Positions 1-44,703 of a stretch of DNA of 44,703 nucleotides are shown here, one piece after another. The notes under the pieces are model-generated. The model was not told the origin of the DNA. It worked only from the letters and a program-made list of their open reading frames with translations, and made no database searches. Location of the stretch: the IMG/VR virus record IMGVR_UViG_2718218308_000001; one strand, 5' to 3'. A program made the translations under genes and the position numbers. This DNA comes from a virus. Its lineage: Duplodnaviria > Heunggongvirae > Uroviricota > Caudoviricetes. How positions within the stretch are numbered: the stretch's first letter is position 1; each line of letters opens with the position of its first letter.

Positions 1-19
1 CTGTTTGATAAATATTAAA

Positions 20-1315
20 TTAATTTTTCATTGCTTCGTTATGGGGCATGGTTGGGGCAAACTCGCTTAACTGTGTATTTAACAAAGCTACCTGTGCATT
101 ATTGTTTTCAGACATCCATTTTCCGTATACCTGAAATACCATTTGCGCATCTGCATGGCCCATCTGGTTTGCTATAAATGCCGGGTTAGCACCAGCTGTC
201 AGCGACCAGCAGGCATAAGTATGTCTCGACTGATATGATTTTCGATGGCGGAGTCCGGCACGTTTTATCGCTGCGTCCCACATCTGCCTTATTGAGTCAA
301 CGGTAAAATGGTCACCATAATTTTTTACTCTCGCTGACACTTCAGGTTGAAAAACAAAGGTGCATTTTTGTTTTTCTGTTCTGCCATACTCTCTGAGGTG
401 AACATCAATGATATGCTCTTTGCTCAGTCTCGTTAATGTCATCTGACTCCGGAGAGCGTCGATTGCTGGCTTAATAAGATGAATGACCCGATTGGTTCCC
501 GCCTGTGTTTTTGGTACCGTGAAACGGTCTTTTGCTAAATTTCTCCTGATCATCATTGTTCCATTTTTCAGATCTATGTCCTCCCATCCAAGTGCACACA
601 GCTCACCAGGGCGAACGCCAGTATAAACAGAAACACACCATAAATTTTTGGCTTGCTGATTTCTGCACGCATCGATAAGACGGATGAATTCCTCCCGCGA
701 AAGAGGATCCGGAATGGTTCTTGATTCCTTTAATGGCGAGATCCCCTTAAACGGATTATCTGCCAGGTAACCGTTATCAACACCAAACTGGAACACGGCG
801 TTAAGATTTGTCATGTAATTATTTACAGTTACAGCCGATCTCCCTGGTTGTGTAACAATATAGTTACTTTTGGGGATCTGGTATCCAGTCAGTAGCTCTT
901 TACGAACCTCCAGTAATTTTTCTTTATTAATCGATGAGGCAAGATTTTTTTCACCGATTATGCTCAGGATATTTTTGATGACGGCACGGTATGTGTTGAG
1001 TGATGTTTTGGCGACTTCAGTTTCTTTCAGTGCCAGAAATTTTTCAGCCAGTTCTTTTATGGTTAAATCTTGTCGGGCCTCACCAAATTTTTCCAGATTG
1101 CGTGAGGAGGGAAACTGTTTTGCATAGTCGAAAACACCAGTTTTTATTGCGTAACAAACAGAGGAGCGTAGTTCACCTGCAACGCGCCTGTTTTTTGCTG
1201 TGTCAGGAACCCCCAGATTTTCCCTGACTCTTACGCCTTTATAAACAAACCAGATACGTAATTTCCCTCCATGGTTTTCCACGCCTGTCGGATATTTCAT
1301 TTCAACTTCTCTCAT
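20..1315 (-). CDS. Phage tyrosine integrase (site-specific recombinase)
   Basis: 431-aa ORF; C-terminal region (RHTYACW...GANPAFIANQMGH...VY) fits the tyrosine recombinase catalytic domain of IntR/IntS-type prophage integrases; sits at the prophage edge next to an excisionase-like gene. Family assignment from memory, not searched. Confidence 0.85.
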   Translation of the reverse strand: MREVEMKYPTGVENHGGKLRIWFVYKGVRVRENLGVPDTAKNRRVAGELRSSVCYAIKTGVFDYAKQFPSSRNLEKFGEARQDLTIKELAEKFLALKETEVAKTSLNTYRAVIKNILSIIGEKNLASSINKEKLLEVRKELLTGYQIPKSNYIVTQPGRSAVTVNNYMTNLNAVFQFGVDNGYLADNPFKGISPLKESRTIPDPLSREEFIRLIDACRNQQAKNLWCVSVYTGVRPGELCALGWEDIDLKNGTMMIRRNLAKDRFTVPKTQAGTNRVIHLIKPAIDALRSQMTLTRLSKEHIIDVHLREYGRTEKQKCTFVFQPEVSARVKNYGDHFTVDSIRQMWDAAIKRAGLRHRKSYQSRHTYACWSLTAGANPAFIANQMGHADAQMVFQVYGKWMSENNNAQVALLNTQLSEFAPTMPHNEAMKN

Positions 1316-1334
1316 TAGTTAGTGTGGCTTTTAG

Positions 1335-1586
1335 TCAAGTAAGATGACGTCTTGGTCTCGCTGATGCCTGGCGCTCAATCCAGCGATCAATTTCTTCCAG
1401 GTTGTAAAAGCATGGACTGTTATCCCATGGCATACCGTCATGAGCGACATGCTTATATTCCCTTCCTTCCATAAACGATTTTTCCCGGGCCTTTTTTAAC
1501 GTACCTTTTTTTATTCCTTTCAGCGCAATTAACTGCTCTTCGGATACCCATTTGCCGGGAGAGACAATCATGATTACTTCGCTCAT
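1335..1586 (-). CDS. Excisionase-like small DNA-binding protein
   Basis: 83-aa ORF directly upstream of and co-oriented with the integrase, the typical xis position. Called by position and size only. Confidence 0.55.
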   Translation of the reverse strand: MSEVIMIVSPGKWVSEEQLIALKGIKKGTLKKAREKSFMEGREYKHVAHDGMPWDNSPCFYNLEEIDRWIERQASARPRRHLT

Positions 1587-1658
1587 CGATTTCTTTATCT
1601 CTTACATCAGACGAGCGCCGGTTGCAGAATACCAGTCACAACCGGCGACAGTTGAACA

Positions 1659-3113
1659 TTAAGAATCAGCCTGACTCGGGATCAGTTTTTGCCAGATAAC
1701 TGAAACGTATTTTGCCTGGTAACGGGCGTCATCAAGTGCATTATGGCGCTCACCTTCGAATGGAATAGCCGTTCTGGCATCGAAGTCTATGGCTTTCCCC
1801 AGCTCAACGATTGTGCGTACATCGCGATCGTTGTAGTAACGCCACGGGCAGGGGATCCCCTGCCGTTCGTATGAACGGCGCAAAATCGTGTTGTCGAAGT
1901 TGGCTCCATTTCCCCAAACCTGAACAAAAAATTCACCGGAGTTTTCGTCGATAAATTCCCGTAATTGTAACAGTGCATCATCTAACGGGATTTCATCGGT
2001 CATAATGGCAGATTGCGCTTCGCGTGATTGCTTAAGCCACCATTTAATGGTGTCCCGATCAATGACTCCGCCAGCAGTTTCCAGATCGATAGTCTTACTA
2101 AATTCCGGTCCCATATCTCCGGTTTGCGGATCGAAAAATATTGCACCTATTGAGATGATCGGGGCATCAGGATTTTTTCCCATGGTTTCAAGGTCGATCA
2201 TTAGATGGTCACACGTCCTGCTGGTGGATGTGATTTCGTGATGACCGTTCACCTTAATTGAGTGATCTGCCGTCTCGCCAGTTTCATTATCGCTATTGTG
2301 ATGCTGATTGCCGCCAGTGTTCTCCTTGTGTGGATGTTCAGCGCCTTCCATTTCCTCCGGATCATCTTCCTGAACTTCAACCTGATACTCTTCATCGAAT
2401 GTTTCTTGGTATGTTGCGTCGCCCATCACCGCGCCACAATCAGGGCAGTTGCCGCCGCCGGTCTGACCGCAGGCGGTGCAGACTTTTTCCACTTCCTGTT
2501 GCGCCACTGGTTCAGGCTGTTTCGTTTCTGGCTCGTTTTGTAACGCATTTGTGCTGTTTTGTTCCGCTTTTTGGTAGTTCCGTTCCGATTCATGCTGGTT
2601 CTGGTTCACAGAATCGCGGGTCTGGATCCCCTTAACCCATTTCGGATCATTCGGGTCACTAATCCCTTCAACAAATTCACCACGTGATGCAGCAAGCAAC
2701 TTATCGGCGTCAGGCTGGCTGATATTGGCTGCCTGCATAATTTTGTTTACTTCGTCAGCGGTAACTTTTATCGGCTCTGGTTGTTCTGAATCTTCAGCGG
2801 TATCTACATTTTGCGGTAAGCCCGTGTATGTGCCATTTTTTCGGGCAAAATATTCTTCTTTTGTGATTTCAGTGGCGCCAGCAGCCAGTGCCTTATCCAG
2901 ACCAGAAAGTTTGTTTGCGCGACCGTATTTTTCTCCGTCCTTATCTGCGAAGAGGAAATAGAACGGCCCCTCACGCTCTACAGATGGTTCAGCTTCCGGC
3001 GCGGTTTCATTTTTTGGGATATCAGATACCTCAGTTTCCACTGCATCAGTTTGTGTTTCTGATGACTGGAGAACATCAACAGTGCCCAGGTCTGTTTCTT
3101 CATTCTCAAACAC
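1659..3113 (-). CDS. Putative phage exonuclease with C-terminal DEDD-type 3'-5' exonuclease domain; possibly 5'-truncated
   Basis: 484-aa ORF. C-terminal half has DnaQ-like motifs (MIDLETMG ... FDxxxL ... HNALDDA); N-terminal half is acidic and low-complexity with a CxxC...CxxC cluster. The ORF start lies 60 bp from the IS3 left end. Confidence 0.55.
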
Positions 3114-3238
3114 GCCCTTTGTCGTCAGGTATTCGCAGATATATTTGTTCAGTGCTATGGGATCTTTGTGAATTGATCTTACCCAGCAATAGTGGACACG
3201 CGGCTAAGTGAGTAAACTCTCAGTCAGAGGTGACTCAC

Positions 3239-3538
3239 ATGACAAAAACAGTATCAACCAGTAAAAAACCCCGTAAACAGCATTCGCCTGAATTTCGCAG
3301 TGAAGCCCTGAAGCTTGCTGAACGCATCGGTGTTACTGCCGCAGCCCGTGAACTCAGCCTGTATGAATCACAACTCTACAACTGGCGCAGTAAACAGCAA
3401 AATCAGCAGACGTCTTCTGAACGTGAACTGGAGATGTCTACCGAGATTGCACGTCTCAAACGCCAGCTGGCAGAACGGGATGAAGAGCTGGCTATCCTCC
3501 AAAAGGCCGCGACATACTTCGCGAAGCGCCTGAAATGA
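3239..3538 (+). CDS. insE: IS3 transposase OrfA (InsE)
   Basis: 99-aa product [32 protein letters not shown]... with helix-turn-helix region; overlaps orfB as in IS3-family elements. Confidence 0.9.
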
Positions 3539-4401
3539 AGTATGTCTTTATTGAAAAACATCAGGCTGAGTTCAGCATCAAAGCAATGTGCCGCGTGCTC
3601 CGGGTGGCCCGCAGCGGCTGGTATACGTGGTGTCAGCGGCGGACAAGGATAAGCACGCGTCAGCAGTTCCGCCAACACTGCGACAGCGTTGTCCTCGCGG
3701 CTTTTACCCGGTCAAAACAGCGTTACGGTGCCCCACGCCTGACGGATGAACTGCGTGCTCAGGGTTACCCCTTTAACGTAAAAACCGTGGCGGCAAGCCT
3801 GCGCCGTCAGGGACTGAGGGCAAAGGCCTCCCGGAAGTTCAGCCCGGTCAGCTACCGCGCACACGGCCTGCCTGTGTCAGAAAATCTGTTGGAGCAGGAT
3901 TTTTACGCCAGTGGCCCGAACCAGAAGTGGGCAGGAGACATCACGTACTTACGTACAGATGAAGGCTGGCTGTATCTGGCAGTGGTCATTGACCTGTGGT
4001 CACGTGCCGTTATTGGCTGGTCAATGTCGCCACGCATGACGGCGCAACTGGCCTGCGATGCCCTGCAGATGGCGCTGTGGCGGCGTAAGAGGCCCCGGAA
4101 CGTTATCGTTCACACGGACCGTGGAGGCCAGTACTGTTCAGCAGATTATCAGGCGCAACTGAAGCGGCATAATCTGCGTGGAAGTATGAGCGCAAAAGGT
4201 TGCTGCTACGATAATGCCTGCGTGGAAAGCTTCTTTCATTCGCTGAAAGTGGAATGTATCCATGGAGAACACTTTATCAGCCGGGAAATAATGCGGGCAA
4301 CGGTGTTTAATTATATCGAATGTGATTACAATCGGTGGCGGCGGCACAGTTGGTGTGGCGGCCTCAGTCCGGAACAATTTGAAAACAAGAACCTCGCTTA
4401 G
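3535..4401 (+). CDS. insF: IS3 transposase OrfB (InsF), DDE integrase-like catalytic domain
   Basis: 288-aa ORF overlapping orfA in another frame; contains DDE-type residues (WAGDITY...HTDRGGQY...[10 protein letters not shown]). Confidence 0.9.
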
Positions 4402-4431
4402 GCCTGTGTCCATATTACGTGGGTAGGATCA

Positions 4432-4686
4432 CGTGGAAGTATGAGCGCAAAAGGTTGCTGCTACGATAATGCCTGCGTGGAAAGCTTCTTTCATTCGCTG
4501 AAAGTGGAATGTATCCATGGAGAACACTTTATCAGCCGGGAAATAATGCGGGCAACGGTGTTTAATTATATCGAATGTGATTACAATCGGTGGCGGCGGC
4601 ACAGTTGGTGTGGCGGCCTCAGTCCGGAACAATTTGAAAACAAGAACCTCGCTTAGGCCTGTGTCCATATTACGTGGGTAGGATCA
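4432..4686 (+). mobile_element. Partial IS3: tandem duplicate of the 3'-terminal 255 bp
   Basis: 4432..4686 repeats 4177..4431 (the insF 3' end plus right terminal repeat) immediately after the complete element. ORFs 4441..4656 (+) and 4429..4668 (-) are artefacts of this duplication. Confidence 0.85.
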
Positions 4687-4846
4687 CACCTCATGCCCCA
4701 GATGTTTTTTGTTTTCAGGAGAAAACTATATCGCAGAACTACGAACTAAACTTATGTCATAACTCATGCAAAAAACTCTTCGGCTAAACATTAAAAAAAT
4801 CTTATAATGCGAATCATATTTTGTTACATGTTCAGGAGCGCAAAGG

Positions 4847-5887
4847 ATGTCCCAGTACGACAAAGCCACGCAAACAGCAGGTTTAGTACGCATAACTAAT
4901 CAATTAGAGTCTATATACGGAACTTTTATTGATATGAAAGATATTAATTCCGTAGGAGAGCATAGGAAAGAAACTCTAATTACACGCTGTGTAGCTGCGC
5001 ATGCAATCAGCTTGTATGGTGATGAACCAGACCCTGAGTTAGCTGCTAATGCTGTCTGCGATGGAAAAGATGATGGCGGGATAGATGCAGTTTATGTTAA
5101 TAAAAATTCGAGAAAGATAGTAATAGTTCAGTCAAAATATATTAAAAATGGCGACGGTTCTATAACCACAAGAGAATTCGGAAGATTCAAAGACGCATGC
5201 GCAAAAGTAATAGCCAGCGACTTTACAACATTTAACGAAAGGTTTTTAAGAAACAAAGACTCCATAATTGAAGCAATCTCAGGATTTACATATAAATGTA
5301 TATGTGTATTTATATATACAGGGGTTCATGAGCCAAGCGAAGAAGTAAAATCAGACATAGAGTTTTGGGAAAAGGTTCAGAATCGGTCTCTATTATTTAA
5401 AGATATAGAGAATAGAGATGAGTATTCAGTGCTATTCGAGCCGGCAGGTATACAAGTGATAATGGATGGTCTTTCTAATGATCGATCAAAATCTATAAAT
5501 GTTAGCAATGTTCACCTTGAAAGTTATGGAGAGATAGCAGAACCTTATAAAGCAATATACGGAACAATATCCGCAAGGATCCTATACGACTGGTGGGAAA
5601 AGTACAAGTACTCTCTGTTCGAGAAAAATATAAGAAGTGTCCTCGGTAATTCATCCATAAACTCTGGGATAAAGAAAACATTAAGTGAAAAGCCGGAGAA
5701 TTTTTGGTACTATAACAATGGGATAACTGCTGTATATAGTGATGTAGAAGAAAGCATGATCAACTTAAGTACAAGCAGGAAGTACGGGCTATTTAGTTTT
5801 AAAAGTCTGAGTATAATAAATGGAGCTCAAACTGTAAGCACTATTGGTGAAGTGTTCAACTCTTTACCCGAAGAAATAAAGATCTAA
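4847..5887 (+). CDS. Candidate abortive-infection/defence protein, N-terminal part (PD-(D/E)xK nuclease-like motif; AIPR-like)
   Basis: 346-aa ORF in an AT-rich island. Motif GIDAVYVN...KIVIVQSKY fits a PD-(D/E)xK D...(E/Q)xK signature; a later NGAQT motif resembles AIPR-family Abi proteins as I recall them. Shine-Dalgarno-like AGGAG upstream. Family assignment unverified. Confidence 0.5.
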   Translation: MSQYDKATQTAGLVRITNQLESIYGTFIDMKDINSVGEHRKETLITRCVAAHAISLYGDEPDPELAANAVCDGKDDGGIDAVYVNKNSRKIVIVQSKYIKNGDGSITTREFGRFKDACAKVIASDFTTFNERFLRNKDSIIEAISGFTYKCICVFIYTGVHEPSEEVKSDIEFWEKVQNRSLLFKDIENRDEYSVLFEPAGIQVIMDGLSNDRSKSINVSNVHLESYGEIAEPYKAIYGTISARILYDWWEKYKYSLFEKNIRSVLGNSSINSGIKKTLSEKPENFWYYNNGITAVYSDVEESMINLSTSRKYGLFSFKSLSIINGAQTVSTIGEVFNSLPEEIKI

Positions 5888-5892
5888 TCAAG

Positions 5893-6621
5893 GTGAGCAT
5901 TAGATTTATCAGTGCAGCAAAAGAAGATTTTTTAACCTCTGTCACTAAATTCAACAATACACAAAACAGGGTTACTGGAAGAGATTTCTCATCACAGAGG
6001 CCCGAGCAACAAAGAATACAAAGAGAAATAAACTTTATTGGCGGATATAGCTACAAACTACTCAGGCAAGAAGACTCCAGCCAGACAGGTGGTAATACCA
6101 TTGATATTGATGATGCTTTAAACGCATTAGTGTGTGCCTCTAAAGATGAAACATTGATATCTTCCTTAAAACTAAATAGAGGACGTTTTTTTGAAAGCTG
6201 GGGAGGTCTTTATGAAAAAGTATTCCCAGCTGAAAATGGTCCTACCGGTTTAGATATAATAAATAAAGTAAATGCTTATAGATTAGCAAATGATATATTG
6301 CAAGAAAGTATAGTTAAACTACTATCAGTAGATATGGAAAATCAGAAGCAGATTCATCAAATAATGATTCATGGAAATTATGTTTTAATATCCATACTCA
6401 TGAATAAAATAGAAGTTTCCTCTGTGGAGAATCACATCTTCTCTTATAGCCGAAACGTTTCACTGGAGGAATGTATAGAGCTGGCTTCTGATACTTATAA
6501 TCACATACAGGAAGTCTTCCCCAATAGTTATATAGCAAGATTCTTCCAGAACAGAGAAAAAGTATTAAATATTATTAATCATCTACTAGGTAAAGAGCAG
6601 ATCATCGAATTGCAAGAGTAA
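5893..6621 (+). CDS. Second ORF of the candidate defence locus (C-terminal part of a frameshifted gene, or a separate partner gene)
   Basis: 242-aa ORF with GTG start 5 nt after the upstream stop, in a different frame; that frame is open from 5851, so one indel in 5851..5887 would fuse the two ORFs into about 590 aa. Followed by a strong terminator. Confidence 0.45.
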   Translation: MSIRFISAAKEDFLTSVTKFNNTQNRVTGRDFSSQRPEQQRIQREINFIGGYSYKLLRQEDSSQTGGNTIDIDDALNALVCASKDETLISSLKLNRGRFFESWGGLYEKVFPAENGPTGLDIINKVNAYRLANDILQESIVKLLSVDMENQKQIHQIMIHGNYVLISILMNKIEVSSVENHIFSYSRNVSLEECIELASDTYNHIQEVFPNSYIARFFQNREKVLNIINHLLGKEQIIELQE

Positions 6622-13076: not shown

Positions 13077-13271
13077 ATGACTCAAGACTATGAACTGGTT
13101 GTGAAAGGAGTCCGTAATTTTGAGAATAAAGTTACGGTAACTGTAGCCTTACAGGACAAAGAACGCTTTGACGGTGAAATTTTTGACCTGGATGTCGCCA
13201 TGGACCGTGTTGAAGGAGCTGCGCTGGAGTTTTATGAGGCAGCAGCCAGAAGGAGCGTCCGGCAAGTCTGA
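13077..13271 (+). pseudogene. ydfR: ydfR-like lysis-cassette gene interrupted by IS3
   Basis: 64-aa ORF whose stop codon TGA is formed by the first bases of IS3; the same frame resumes after the IS for a further 38 codons (14527..14643), restoring an ORF of about 102 aa. Confidence 0.7.
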
Positions 13272-13333
13272 TCTTACCCAGCAATAGTGGACACGCGGCT
13301 AAGTGAGTAAACTCTCAGTCAGAGGTGACTCAC

Positions 13334-13633
13334 ATGACAAAAACAGTATCAACCAGTAAAAAACCCCGTAAACAGCATTCGCCTGAATTTCGCAGTGAAG
13401 CCCTGAAGCTTGCTGAACGCATCGGTGTTACTGCCGCAGCCCGTGAACTCAGCCTGTATGAATCACAACTCTACAACTGGCGCAGTAAACAGCAAAATCA
13501 GCAGACGTCTTCTGAACGTGAACTGGAGATGTCTACCGAGATTGCACGTCTCAAACGCCAGCTGGCAGAACGGGATGAAGAGCTGGCTATCCTCCAAAAG
13601 GCCGCGACATACTTCGCGAAGCGCCTGAAATGA
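13334..13633 (+). CDS. insE: IS3 transposase OrfA (InsE), copy 2
   Basis: Same protein as copy 1. Confidence 0.9.
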
Positions 13634-14496
13634 AGTATGTCTTTATTGAAAAACATCAGGCTGAGTTCAGCATCAAAGCAATGTGCCGCGTGCTCCGGGT
13701 GGCCCGCAGCGGCTGGTATACGTGGTGTCAGCGGCGGACAAGGATAAGCACGCGTCAGCAGTTCCGCCAACACTGCGACAGCGTTGTCCTCGCGGCTTTT
13801 ACCCGGTCAAAACAGCGTTACGGTGCCCCACGCCTGACGGATGAACTGCGTGCTCAGGGTTACCCCTTTAACGTAAAAACCGTGGCGGCAAGCCTGCGCC
13901 GTCAGGGACTGAGGGCAAAGGCCTCCCGGAAGTTCAGCCCGGTCAGCTACCGCGCACACGGCCTGCCTGTGTCAGAAAATCTGTTGGAGCAGGATTTTTA
14001 CGCCAGTGGCCCGAACCAGAAGTGGGCAGGAGACATCACGTACTTACGTACAGATGAAGGCTGGCTGTATCTGGCAGTGGTCATTGACCTGTGGTCACGT
14101 GCCGTTATTGGCTGGTCAATGTCGCCACGCATGACGGCGCAACTGGCCTGCGATGCCCTGCAGATGGCGCTGTGGCGGCGTAAGAGGCCCCGGAACGTTA
14201 TCGTTCACACGGACCGTGGAGGCCAGTACTGTTCAGCAGATTATCAGGCGCAACTGAAGCGGCATAATCTGCGTGGAAGTATGAGCGCAAAAGGTTGCTG
14301 CTACGATAATGCCTGCGTGGAAAGCTTCTTTCATTCGCTGAAAGTGGAATGTATCCATGGAGAACACTTTATCAGCCGGGAAATAATGCGGGCAACGGTG
14401 TTTAATTATATCGAATGTGATTACAATCGGTGGCGGCGGCACAGTTGGTGTGGCGGCCTCAGTCCGGAACAATTTGAAAACAAGAACCTCGCTTAG
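13630..14496 (+). CDS. insF: IS3 transposase OrfB (InsF), copy 2
   Basis: Same protein as copy 1. Confidence 0.9.
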
Positions 14497-14645
14497 GCCT
14501 GTGTCCATATTACGTGGGTAGGATCAGTCTTCCTGGAAGTAGCAGAAAAATTGTCAGAAAAAGTTGAGTCTTATCTGCAGCATCAGTACTCCTTTAAGAT
14601 TGAAAATCCTGCCAATAAGCACGAGCGTCCTCATCATAAATATAT

Positions 14646-40820: not shown

Positions 40821-41395
40821 TGGCATTCAGAATGAGTGAACAACCACGGACCATAAAAATTTATAATCTGCTGGCCGGAACTAATGAATTTATTGGTGAA
40901 GGTGACGCATATATTCCGCCTCATACAGGTCTGCCAGCAAACAGTATCGATATTGCACCGCCAGATATTCCGGCAGGCTTCGTGGCTGTTTTCAACAGTG
41001 ATGAGGCATCGTGGCATCTCGTTGAAGATCATCGGGGTAAAACGGTTTATGACGTGGCTTCCGGCGACGCGTTATTTATTTCTGAACTCGGTCCGTTACC
41101 GGAAAATGTTACCTGGTTATCGCCGGGAGGGGAATATCAGAAGTGGAACGGCACAGCCTGGGTGAAGGATACGGAAGCAGAAAAACTGTTCCGGATCCGG
41201 GAGGCGGAAGAAACAAAAAACAGCCTGATGCAGGTAGCCAGTGAGCATATTGCGCCGCTTCAGGATGCTGCAGATCTGGAAATTGCAACGGAGGAAGAAA
41301 TCTCGTTGCTGGAAGCATGGAAAAAGTATCGGGTATTGCTGAACCGTGTTGATACGTCAACTGAACAGGATATTGAATGGCCAGCACTGCCGTAG
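40820..41395 (+). CDS. tfa: Tail fibre assembly protein Tfa
   Basis: 191-aa ORF immediately after stf with overlapping stop/start. Confidence 0.85.
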
Positions 41396-43419: not shown

Positions 43420-44703
43420 ATGGATTTCCAGTTATATTCGCTCGGCGCAGCGTTAGTGTTTCATGAAATATTTTTTCCTGAATCATCAACGGCAATGGCG
43501 TTAATTCTGGCAATGGGAACCTACGGTGCAGGTTATGTGGCGCGTATTGTCGGAGCATTTATTTTCGGCAAAATGGGCGACAGAATAGGGCGTAAAAAAG
43601 TGCTCTTTATTACCATCACCATGATGGGGATCTGTACCACCTTAATTGGTGTGTTACCGACCTATGCACAGATTGGTATTTTTGCACCCATCTTGCTGGT
43701 GACGTTGCGTATTATTCAGGGGTTGGGTGCAGGTGCGGAAATTTCCGGTGCCGGTACGATGCTGGCGGAATATGCGCCAAAAGGTAAGCGCGGAATTATC
43801 TCCTCATTTGTGGCTATGGGAACTAACTGCGGAACCTTGAGCGCAACGGCAATCTGGGCCTTTATGTTCTTCATTCTCAGTAAAGAGGAACTGCTGGCGT
43901 GGGGATGGCGTATACCGTTCCTGGCGAGCGTTGTCGTGATGGTCTTTGCTATCTGGTTGCGTATGAATCTGAAAGAAAGCCCGGTCTTTGAGAAGGTTAA
44001 CGACAGTAACCAACCGACAGCAAAACCTGCACCTGCTGGTAGCATGTTCCAGAGCAAATCCTTCTGGCTGGCAACAGGGCTGCGTTTTGGTCAGGCGGGT
44101 AACTCCGGGTTAATTCAGACTTTCCTTGCAGGCTATTTAGTGCAGACGTTATTGTTTAACAAAGCAATTCCAACAGATGCATTGATGATCAGTTCGATTC
44201 TCGGCTTTATGACCATTCCGTTCCTTGGTTGGTTATCCGATAAAATTGGTCGCCGGATCCCGTATATTATTATGAATACCTCCGCGATTGTGCTGGCATG
44301 GCCAATGCTTTCTATCATTGTAGATAAAAGCTATGCCCCGAGCACCATTATGGTTGCACTGATTGTGATTCATAACTGTGCGGTGCTGGGATTATTTGCT
44401 CTGGAAAACATTACCATGGCAGAAATGTTCGGCTGTAAAAACCGCTTTACCCGGATGGCTATTTCTAAAGAAATTGGTGGTCTTATCGCTTCCGGTTTTG
44501 GTCCTATCCTGGCGGGTATTTTCTGCACCATGACGGAATCCTGGTATCCGATCGCCATTATGATCATGGCATATTCAGTGATTGGTTTAATCTCTGCGCT
44601 GAAAATGCCAGAGGTGAAAGACCGTGATTTAAGTGCGCTGGAAGACGCTGCGGAAGATCAACCGCGTGTTGTAAGAGCTGCGCAACCTTCCAGAAGTCTG
44701 TAA
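43420..44703 (+). CDS. ydfJ: MFS transporter (YdfJ-like), 5'-truncated at the prophage junction
   Basis: 427-aa ORF with the MFS signature GDRIGRKK after only about one and a half transmembrane segments, so the first helix is missing. Confidence 0.8.
   Translation: MDFQLYSLGAALVFHEIFFPESSTAMALILAMGTYGAGYVARIVGAFIFGKMGDRIGRKKVLFITITMMGICTTLIGVLPTYAQIGIFAPILLVTLRIIQGLGAGAEISGAGTMLAEYAPKGKRGIISSFVAMGTNCGTLSATAIWAFMFFILSKEELLAWGWRIPFLASVVVMVFAIWLRMNLKESPVFEKVNDSNQPTAKPAPAGSMFQSKSFWLATGLRFGQAGNSGLIQTFLAGYLVQTLLFNKAIPTDALMISSILGFMTIPFLGWLSDKIGRRIPYIIMNTSAIVLAWPMLSIIVDKSYAPSTIMVALIVIHNCAVLGLFALENITMAEMFGCKNRFTRMAISKEIGGLIASGFGPILAGIFCTMTESWYPIAIMIMAYSVIGLISALKMPEVKDRDLSALEDAAEDQPRVVRAAQPSRSL

Follow-up and report, generated by a model that had tools for sequence, protein, structure and literature searches.

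The window, that is, the whole stretch of 44,703 nucleotides that was analysed, begins at the end of a prophage. The first genes are all encoded on the minus strand and follow the gene order of the phages HannyBb, PhiR42_1 and Tritos: a tyrosine integrase gene (20..1315), recognized by the Pfam domains Arm-DNA-bind_2 and Phage_integrase and by the phage annotations; an excisionase gene (1335..1586), which matches DUF1233 (Pfam, E=1.6e-31) and is annotated as an excisionase in the intact phages; and, upstream of the excisionase gene, a sequence coding for an exonuclease. The excisionase gene is the downstream neighbor of the exonuclease gene in an operon that the two formerly shared. Called mechanically, the exonuclease frame gives a 484-codon open reading frame (ORF) at 1659-3113, of which the GTG at 3113-3111 is the first possible start after a TAG located inside an IS3 element. 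The homology data indicate that this ORF is not a chance one, since thousands of homologues exist. Between the GTG and the IS3 lie exactly 60 bases (3114-3173), a spacing already given by an earlier inspection of the letters and ORFs (the sequence-only reading), which had ended the gene at 3174, the first base of the IS3.

Translation across the junction shows that the exonuclease frame stays open up to base 3173, adjoining the first IS3 base at 3174, and then runs through ten further codons inside the IS3, none of them a start codon, before reaching the TAG. When the 823-aa protein of HannyBb was compared with the 44.7-kb window by tblastn, only residues 320-824 were found, at 3173..1659, with 99.4% identity, which corresponds to three amino-acid differences over 505 positions with no internal stop and no frameshift. 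The DNA identity to the temperate phages HannyBb, PhiR42_1 and Tritos is 99.4-99.6% over the integrase gene, the excisionase gene and the ORF, and it ends precisely at 3173. The first 319 codons, which encode the YdfE_N (PF27430) and YdfE_C (PF27432) domains, are absent from the whole window in the same tblastn search. Based on tblastn, DNA homology and the junction translation, the feature at 1659..3173 on the minus strand comprises codons 320-823 and the stop codon of the exonuclease gene, and GTG 3113 is not the native start of that gene. The supposition that an IS-linked rearrangement had removed the native 5' end is thus borne out, with only residues 320-823 present and the homology stopping at the end of the IS3.

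The intact gene measures 2472 nt (823 aa) in HannyBb, PhiR42_1 and Tritos and has the same length in E. coli prophages located by rspB. Lengths of 823-824 aa are dominant among the 120 best database matches, where most shorter entries are flagged as "partial", and one cluster of 823-aa proteins has 23,183 member sequences. The HannyBb protein matches positions 1-822 of the 823 positions of the phrog_2082 profile, and the window sequence is a fragment of a member of this family that does not match the profile end to end. The YdfE_N and YdfE_C domains (Pfam) occupy the first 320 residues of the homologues. Alignment with full-length homologues, which had been suggested as a check, gives 823-824 aa in intact contexts and leaves 319 N-terminal codons missing here; no family of full-length homologues beginning at the same start with the same acidic region was seen with an intact context. 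A 508-aa entry from a draft assembly flagged as "partial" (P0003) was considered as a second instance of the same junction and rejected, as it starts four codons further upstream in the exonuclease sequence, at a contig edge. An identical 484-aa product called on two other public contigs was likewise rejected as a natural short form, one call resulting from a 13-bp frameshift and the other from a scaffold gap (a run of N). In the Logan contig ERR3328804_34 (4997-7455), which represents the closest relative of this prophage without the IS3-linked deletion, a 13-bp deletion near codon 227 splits the gene into a 320-aa ORF and the same 484-aa ORF, a lesion that is either an independent decay of the exonuclease gene or an assembly error.

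The C-terminal part of the remnant contains a DEDDh 3'-5' exonuclease domain of the Rv2179c-like type (1692..2207, minus strand; Pfam PF16473), matched by residues 303-474 of the ORF over profile positions 2-177 of 177 (E=1e-67; 227.7 bits versus a cut-off of 27). The RNase_T model and the PADLOC DEDDh model match the same ORF weakly. All five DEDDh residues are legible in the motifs MIDLET (D and E), NFDNT (D) and HNALDD (H-x4-D), and in the numbering of the remnant the predicted catalytic residues are D327 (2195-2193), E329 (2189-2187), D427 (1895-1893), H477 (1745-1743) and D482 (1730-1728), all encoded on the minus strand. The motif residues are invariant in 15 aligned homologues. The DEDD-type motifs that had been recognized by eye in the C-terminal half are therefore confirmed, both by the full-profile match and by the presence of all five residues. 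At E<=0.001, 12,120 representative sequences are related to the catalytic domain. The closest of them are long multidomain proteins too, while many of the listed relatives with 40-50% identity are stand-alone proteins of approximately 180-200 aa whose first residue falls at the MIDLET methionine. An AlphaFold2 model of the 504-residue remnant, built from a shallow alignment of 15 sequences, has a mean pLDDT of 36.5, and its exonuclease domain lies below 50.

The 322 residues between the IS3 junction and the exonuclease domain are markedly acidic, with a pI of 4.39, 20.8% Asp and Glu versus 8.4% Lys and Arg, and a net charge of -40. Their mean entropy in 30-residue segments is 3.48 bits versus 3.70 bits in the catalytic domain, and hydrophobic residues make up 19.6% of this region versus 33% of the catalytic domain. 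The sequence-only reading had described roughly 250 acidic residues of low complexity; the acidic character holds, but the region is longer (about 300 residues) and its reduction in complexity is only mild. The CxxC...CxxC cluster reported within the acidic part is present as CTAC-x7-CPDC (2436..2480, minus strand), read directly from the sequence, with CTAC and CPDC seven residues apart. Its four cysteines are invariant in the 15 aligned homologues and also conserved in RecE, and they may form a putative zinc ribbon or zinc knuckle. In addition, residues 474-621 of the full-length protein (2268..2711, minus strand) align by BLASTP with residues 471-611 of the Rac-SA53 RecE protein at 74% identity (E=8e-66), including the cysteine cluster and the acidic run. 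The NCBIfam model for exodeoxyribonuclease VIII (NF007259) matches full-length residues 246-623 through its positions 271-600 of 877, with a score of 282.7 bits that falls well below the cut-off of 1269 set for the whole protein. The C-terminal part of RecE has no similarity in the Qin-type exonuclease by BLASTP. The only part of the acidic region that is confidently modeled lies at 2838-2966 on the minus strand (remnant residues ~70-112, pLDDT 76-84), where two hairpin strands and helices are predicted in a sequence that is invariant among the homologues; these residues may constitute a small folded module. Judging from these alignments, the acidic region is a conserved middle segment, homologous to a central part of RecE that precedes its C-terminal nuclease domain, rather than junk. 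It had earlier been taken for the N-terminal half of the protein, a view that does not hold, as the acidic CxxC region lies in the middle of an 823-aa protein.

According to the homologies, the intact protein would be a mosaic of a YdfE-type N-terminus, a RecE-type linker that looks mostly unstructured, and a DexA-type exonuclease. The intact protein, encoded in the slot of the recombination module, would be expected to process DNA ends as a 3'-5' DNA exonuclease during lytic growth. In the literature searched, no biochemical test of the intact 823-aa protein was found, nor any report on the function of ydfE or of Rv2179c-like proteins in phages.

The element that adjoins codon 320 by its left end is a complete IS3 of 1258 bp on the plus strand (3174..4431), encoding orfA (3230-3538) and orfB (3535-4401), with the Pfam domains HTH_Tnp_1 and rve. 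Its terminal inverted repeats begin with TGATC, and its ends, read directly, are TGATCTTACCC... and ...GGGTAGGATCA. A second copy in the window (13269-14526) and the IS3 annotated in E. coli VG12A2 are both 100% identical to it. Self-BLAST reveals that the right end of the complete element is followed without a gap by a 255-bp 3'-terminal fragment of IS3 (IS3 positions 1004-1258; window 4432..4686, plus strand), and the prophage homology resumes at 4687; this tandem of a full IS3 and a 255-bp IS3 fragment is an unusual arrangement. The fragment marks the far side of a deletion. The Logan contig ERR3328804_34 matches window positions 1-3173 without a mismatch, is 100% identical to 4687-5049, and carries 5,577 extra bp between these two segments, which encode DUF977, an O-like gene, a YdaT/cII-like gene, a cro-like gene, DUF1391, dicB, a ydfD homologue (DUF1482) and the 5' part of the exonuclease gene. 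E. coli STLEFF_47 has the same map, with 5,608 bp between the flanks. The lost block of ~5.6 kb is found nowhere else in the 44.7-kb window, where both flanks are present in the expected order. The three bases that flank the IS3 block are AAT on the left versus CAC on the right; since they differ, there is no target-site duplication, and the arrangement is not a simple insertion.

An IS3-associated deletion of ~5.6 kb connected codon 320 with the left end of the complete IS3, while the right end of this element was linked to another IS3 copy at position 1004. The arrangement suggests that the end of one IS3 attacked a neighboring copy at 1003/1004 and deleted everything in between. Gone with the deletion are the first 319 codons of the exonuclease gene, ydfD and dicB, the remainder of the early-left operon, the cro-like/immunity region, the O-like replication gene and DUF977. 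We infer that this adjacent deletion was made by transposase acting at the right end of IS3. Homologous recombination is disfavored, since the joint links a complete IS end with an internal IS3 site that has no evident sequence in common with it (as judged by eye), and since recombined copies would leave a single IS3.

In K-12, the homologous remnant ydfE is the last cistron of the dicBF transcript (ydfABC-dicF-dicB-ydfDE), which is transcribed from dicBp, a promoter located upstream of ydfA, under repression by DicA (PMC10448788). The region equivalent to K-12 dicBp falls inside the deleted block, and by analogy the lost operon promoter would be the dicBp counterpart. A crude consensus scan, which could miss weak promoters, non-sigma-70 promoters and read-through from further right, found no sigma-70-like site on the minus strand between 1300 and 4900, including 3113-3174, in agreement with the earlier proposal that the native promoter had been lost in the rearrangement. 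Directly before GTG 3113 there is an AAAGGGC sequence whose purine run lies 1 nt from the start, too close to serve as a usable Shine-Dalgarno sequence, and the internal ATG of MIDLET (2201) has an AGGA 13 bases away, which is not a working distance either. Because the start codon, the ribosome-binding site and the operon promoter were all lost, the remnant is most likely silent, or at most weakly and aberrantly expressed. With respect to the earlier description of a truncated or silenced gene, the truncation is established by its breakpoints, while the silencing is deduced from these losses.

The alternative that the remnant is expressed as a shortened but active 3'-5' exonuclease, through fortuitous transcription from or across IS3, and may be kept because it is useful to the host, draws on the integrity of all five DEDDh residues and of the 484-codon frame, on the physical possibility of translation from GTG 3113 or from the internal ATG, on the stand-alone form of many of the listed relatives with 40-50% identity (~180-200 aa from the internal Met position), and on the report that the stand-alone protein EcD protects against T4 when provided from a plasmid (PMC12153337). 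However, no promoter-like site was found in the 1.7 kb upstream on the minus strand, neither candidate start has a Shine-Dalgarno sequence at a working distance, EcD is a different protein (with a MIDTET start and a different C-terminus), and the Trp by which DexA would recognize 5hmC aligns with a Tyr. Moreover, the near-identity to intact copies makes the intactness of the remnant uninformative on selection, and the gene is broken by IS1, IS2 and a 13-bp deletion in other strains, as would be seen in neutral decay. This alternative is considered very unlikely, and it is most unlikely that a shortened protein (484 aa from GTG 3113 or ~180 aa from ATG 2201) acts as an exonuclease that benefits the host, for instance against phages with modified DNA. 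If that were true, the ~180-aa product would be co-linear with stand-alone DexA-, EcD- and Rv2179c-like enzymes and freed of its N-terminal regulatory part.

An assembly artefact, in which identical IS3 copies were falsely joined while the real gene is intact or simply interrupted by IS3, also has to be weighed, given that two 100% identical IS3 copies and a fragment occur within 11 kb and that a complete IS3 followed by a 255-bp fragment is an uncommon structure. The junctions were not recovered elsewhere either: neither the left junction (a 240-bp query) nor the right junction found a place covering >=80% of the query in 5,426 complete E. coli genomes, and exact 33-42-mers across both junctions had no match in the GTDB species representatives. 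These searches also yielded no intermediate that carries just one of the two IS3 copies. The absence of the junctions from those genomes is read as an event private to the source lineage. On the other hand, the left junction coincides with the outermost base of IS3, the outcome expected of a genuine insertion, the 5.6-kb block is absent from the 44.7-kb window although its flanks are there in the expected order, and the collapse of a repeat would give one IS3, not a complete copy plus a fragment that begins at position 1004. A false join is thus regarded as extremely unlikely. Finally, the notion that the 484-codon ORF is a complete functional gene with a natural GTG start at 3113 and its own promoter in 3114-3173 is scarcely credible, for although the ORF is long and undamaged and an identical 484-aa product was called separately on two other public contigs, both of those calls are artefacts (the 13-bp frameshift and the N run) in otherwise full-length genes, the gene has 2472 nt in every intact context examined, the homology extends upstream of the GTG to the exact end of IS3, no promoter-like site was found, and the purine run lies 1 nt from the GTG.

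Taken together, the window sequence 1659-3173 is, with a probability of about 0.9, a recent pseudogene that retains the 3' 61% of an 823-codon exonuclease gene of Qin/mEp460-type lambdoid prophages of E. coli, cut by an IS3-associated deletion. The pseudogene is considered recent because it is nearly identical to intact copies. The gene is truncated at exact breakpoints, a defined block has been lost, and the catalytic motifs are intact in what remains. IS-mediated truncation of the Qin-type exonuclease gene represents ordinary prophage decay: the gene is broken elsewhere too, by IS1 in SEV1, by IS2 in K-12 and by the 13-bp deletion in ERR3328804, and it has been repeatedly destroyed in cryptic prophages. 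In annotations, the ORF should appear not as a gene but as a pseudogene, derived from a Qin-type prophage exonuclease gene by truncation at the 5' end.

The prophage as a whole carries other lesions. The second complete IS3 (13269-14526, plus strand) interrupts, as a simple insertion, the DUF1327 gene that comes directly after the holin gene in the lysis cassette, and HannyBb positions 41101-41105 are matched on both sides of it, as is typical of the duplicated target of a simple insertion. At 4847-6621 (plus strand), an abortive-infection gene of the AIPR family (AbiU-like) has lost 1 bp from an A-run near 5873 when compared to the intact 591-aa gene of E. coli STLEFF_47, and it is thereby split into ORFs of 346 aa and 242 aa. 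The split reflects either a further pseudogene or a sequencing error in the homopolymer. The 5.6-kb deletion and the IS3 in the lysis cassette make the prophage clearly defective, and it should be described as such, given the loss of its immunity and replication block, the additional IS3 among the lysis genes and the frameshift in the AIPR gene. Between 9320 and 12828, the similarity to HannyBb stops after a ydfU-like gene. From there to the lysis genes, the window resembles E. coli SEV1 in having lipocalin-like, YbgA-like and HTH ORFs, which suggests a mosaic exchange within the late-regulatory region. At the opposite end of the window (43420-44703, plus strand), an ORF of 427 aa encodes an MFS transporter that is ydfJ-like, as judged by its position beside a Qin-type prophage, and it starts 12 nt inside phage-derived sequence, whose homology extends to 43431. 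This host gene thus seems to owe its first four codons to the end of the prophage.

Several known systems share parts of this architecture. Rv2179c of Mycobacterium tuberculosis, the founder of PF16473, is a small stand-alone exoribonuclease. The profile of its family is matched end to end by the domain of the remnant (E=1e-67), and in the PDB sequence search Rv2179c gave no match to the query at E<=0.01. The solved structure that is best matched by sequence is T4 DexA (PDB 8KEL; E=1.5e-6), an enzyme of the same DEDDh class. Its D7, E9 and D119 align with the D, E and D residues of the remnant, where the H-x4-D motif is also present, but DexA W152 aligns with a Tyr and the alignment ends before DexA D169. 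DexA and its stand-alone E. coli homologue EcD (HREX) were described in 2025 as discriminating 5hmC DNA, and a Trp together with an Asp or Glu, equivalent to DexA W152 and D169, was proposed to recognize 5hmC (PMC12153337). EcD was considered as a possible counterpart of the Qin-type exonuclease and rejected, since the primers used for its cloning show a different sequence (MIDTET... and a different C-terminus). Because EcD is a different protein and the Trp of DexA, which is also that of the HREX/EcD type, is replaced by a Tyr here, the 5hmC function of EcD and DexA is not transferable to this protein. DexA and EcD are also free-standing, whereas the exonuclease domain is here the tail of an 823-aa protein.

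In the case of RecE from the Rac prophage, the middle segment is common (74% identity over ~148 residues, with the CxxC-x7-CxxC cluster and the acidic stretch) and the early-left position by the int and xis genes is the same as that of the Qin-type exonuclease. In contrast, the C-terminal 5'-3' nuclease domain of RecE is unmatched, and the Qin-type exonuclease has a DEDDh 3'-5' domain in its place. Unlike recE, the Qin-type exonuclease genes of HannyBb, PhiR42_1 and Tritos have no recT-like partner after them. The name "exodeoxyribonuclease VIII" often given to this family is a misnomer, because the nuclease domain of RecE is unmatched and only its middle segment is common.

The full-length relatives of the phrog_2082 family are represented by the HannyBb protein XNS40216.1, the Tritos protein CAH1234810.1 and the E. 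coli protein WP_016247243.1, whose residues 320-823 are 99.4% identical to the window sequence. The position by the int and xis genes, the DEDDh domain, the acidic linker and the cysteine cluster are the same in all of them, whereas the window copy has lost its first 319 codons, together with the start codon and all that lay upstream of it, as far as the DUF977 gene. The K-12 gene ydfE (b1577), a pseudogene of the cryptic prophage Qin and the last gene of the dicBF operon, belongs to the same family, occupies the same site by rspB and was also cut by an IS element. An IS hot spot common to both copies was considered and rejected, with the break at codon 255 in K-12 and at codon 320 here. In K-12 ydfE, the first 255 codons remain, as far as IS2E, and the exonuclease domain is gone; the window copy, in contrast, lacks the front of the gene and its operon and keeps codons 320-823, thus being the mirror image of its K-12 counterpart.
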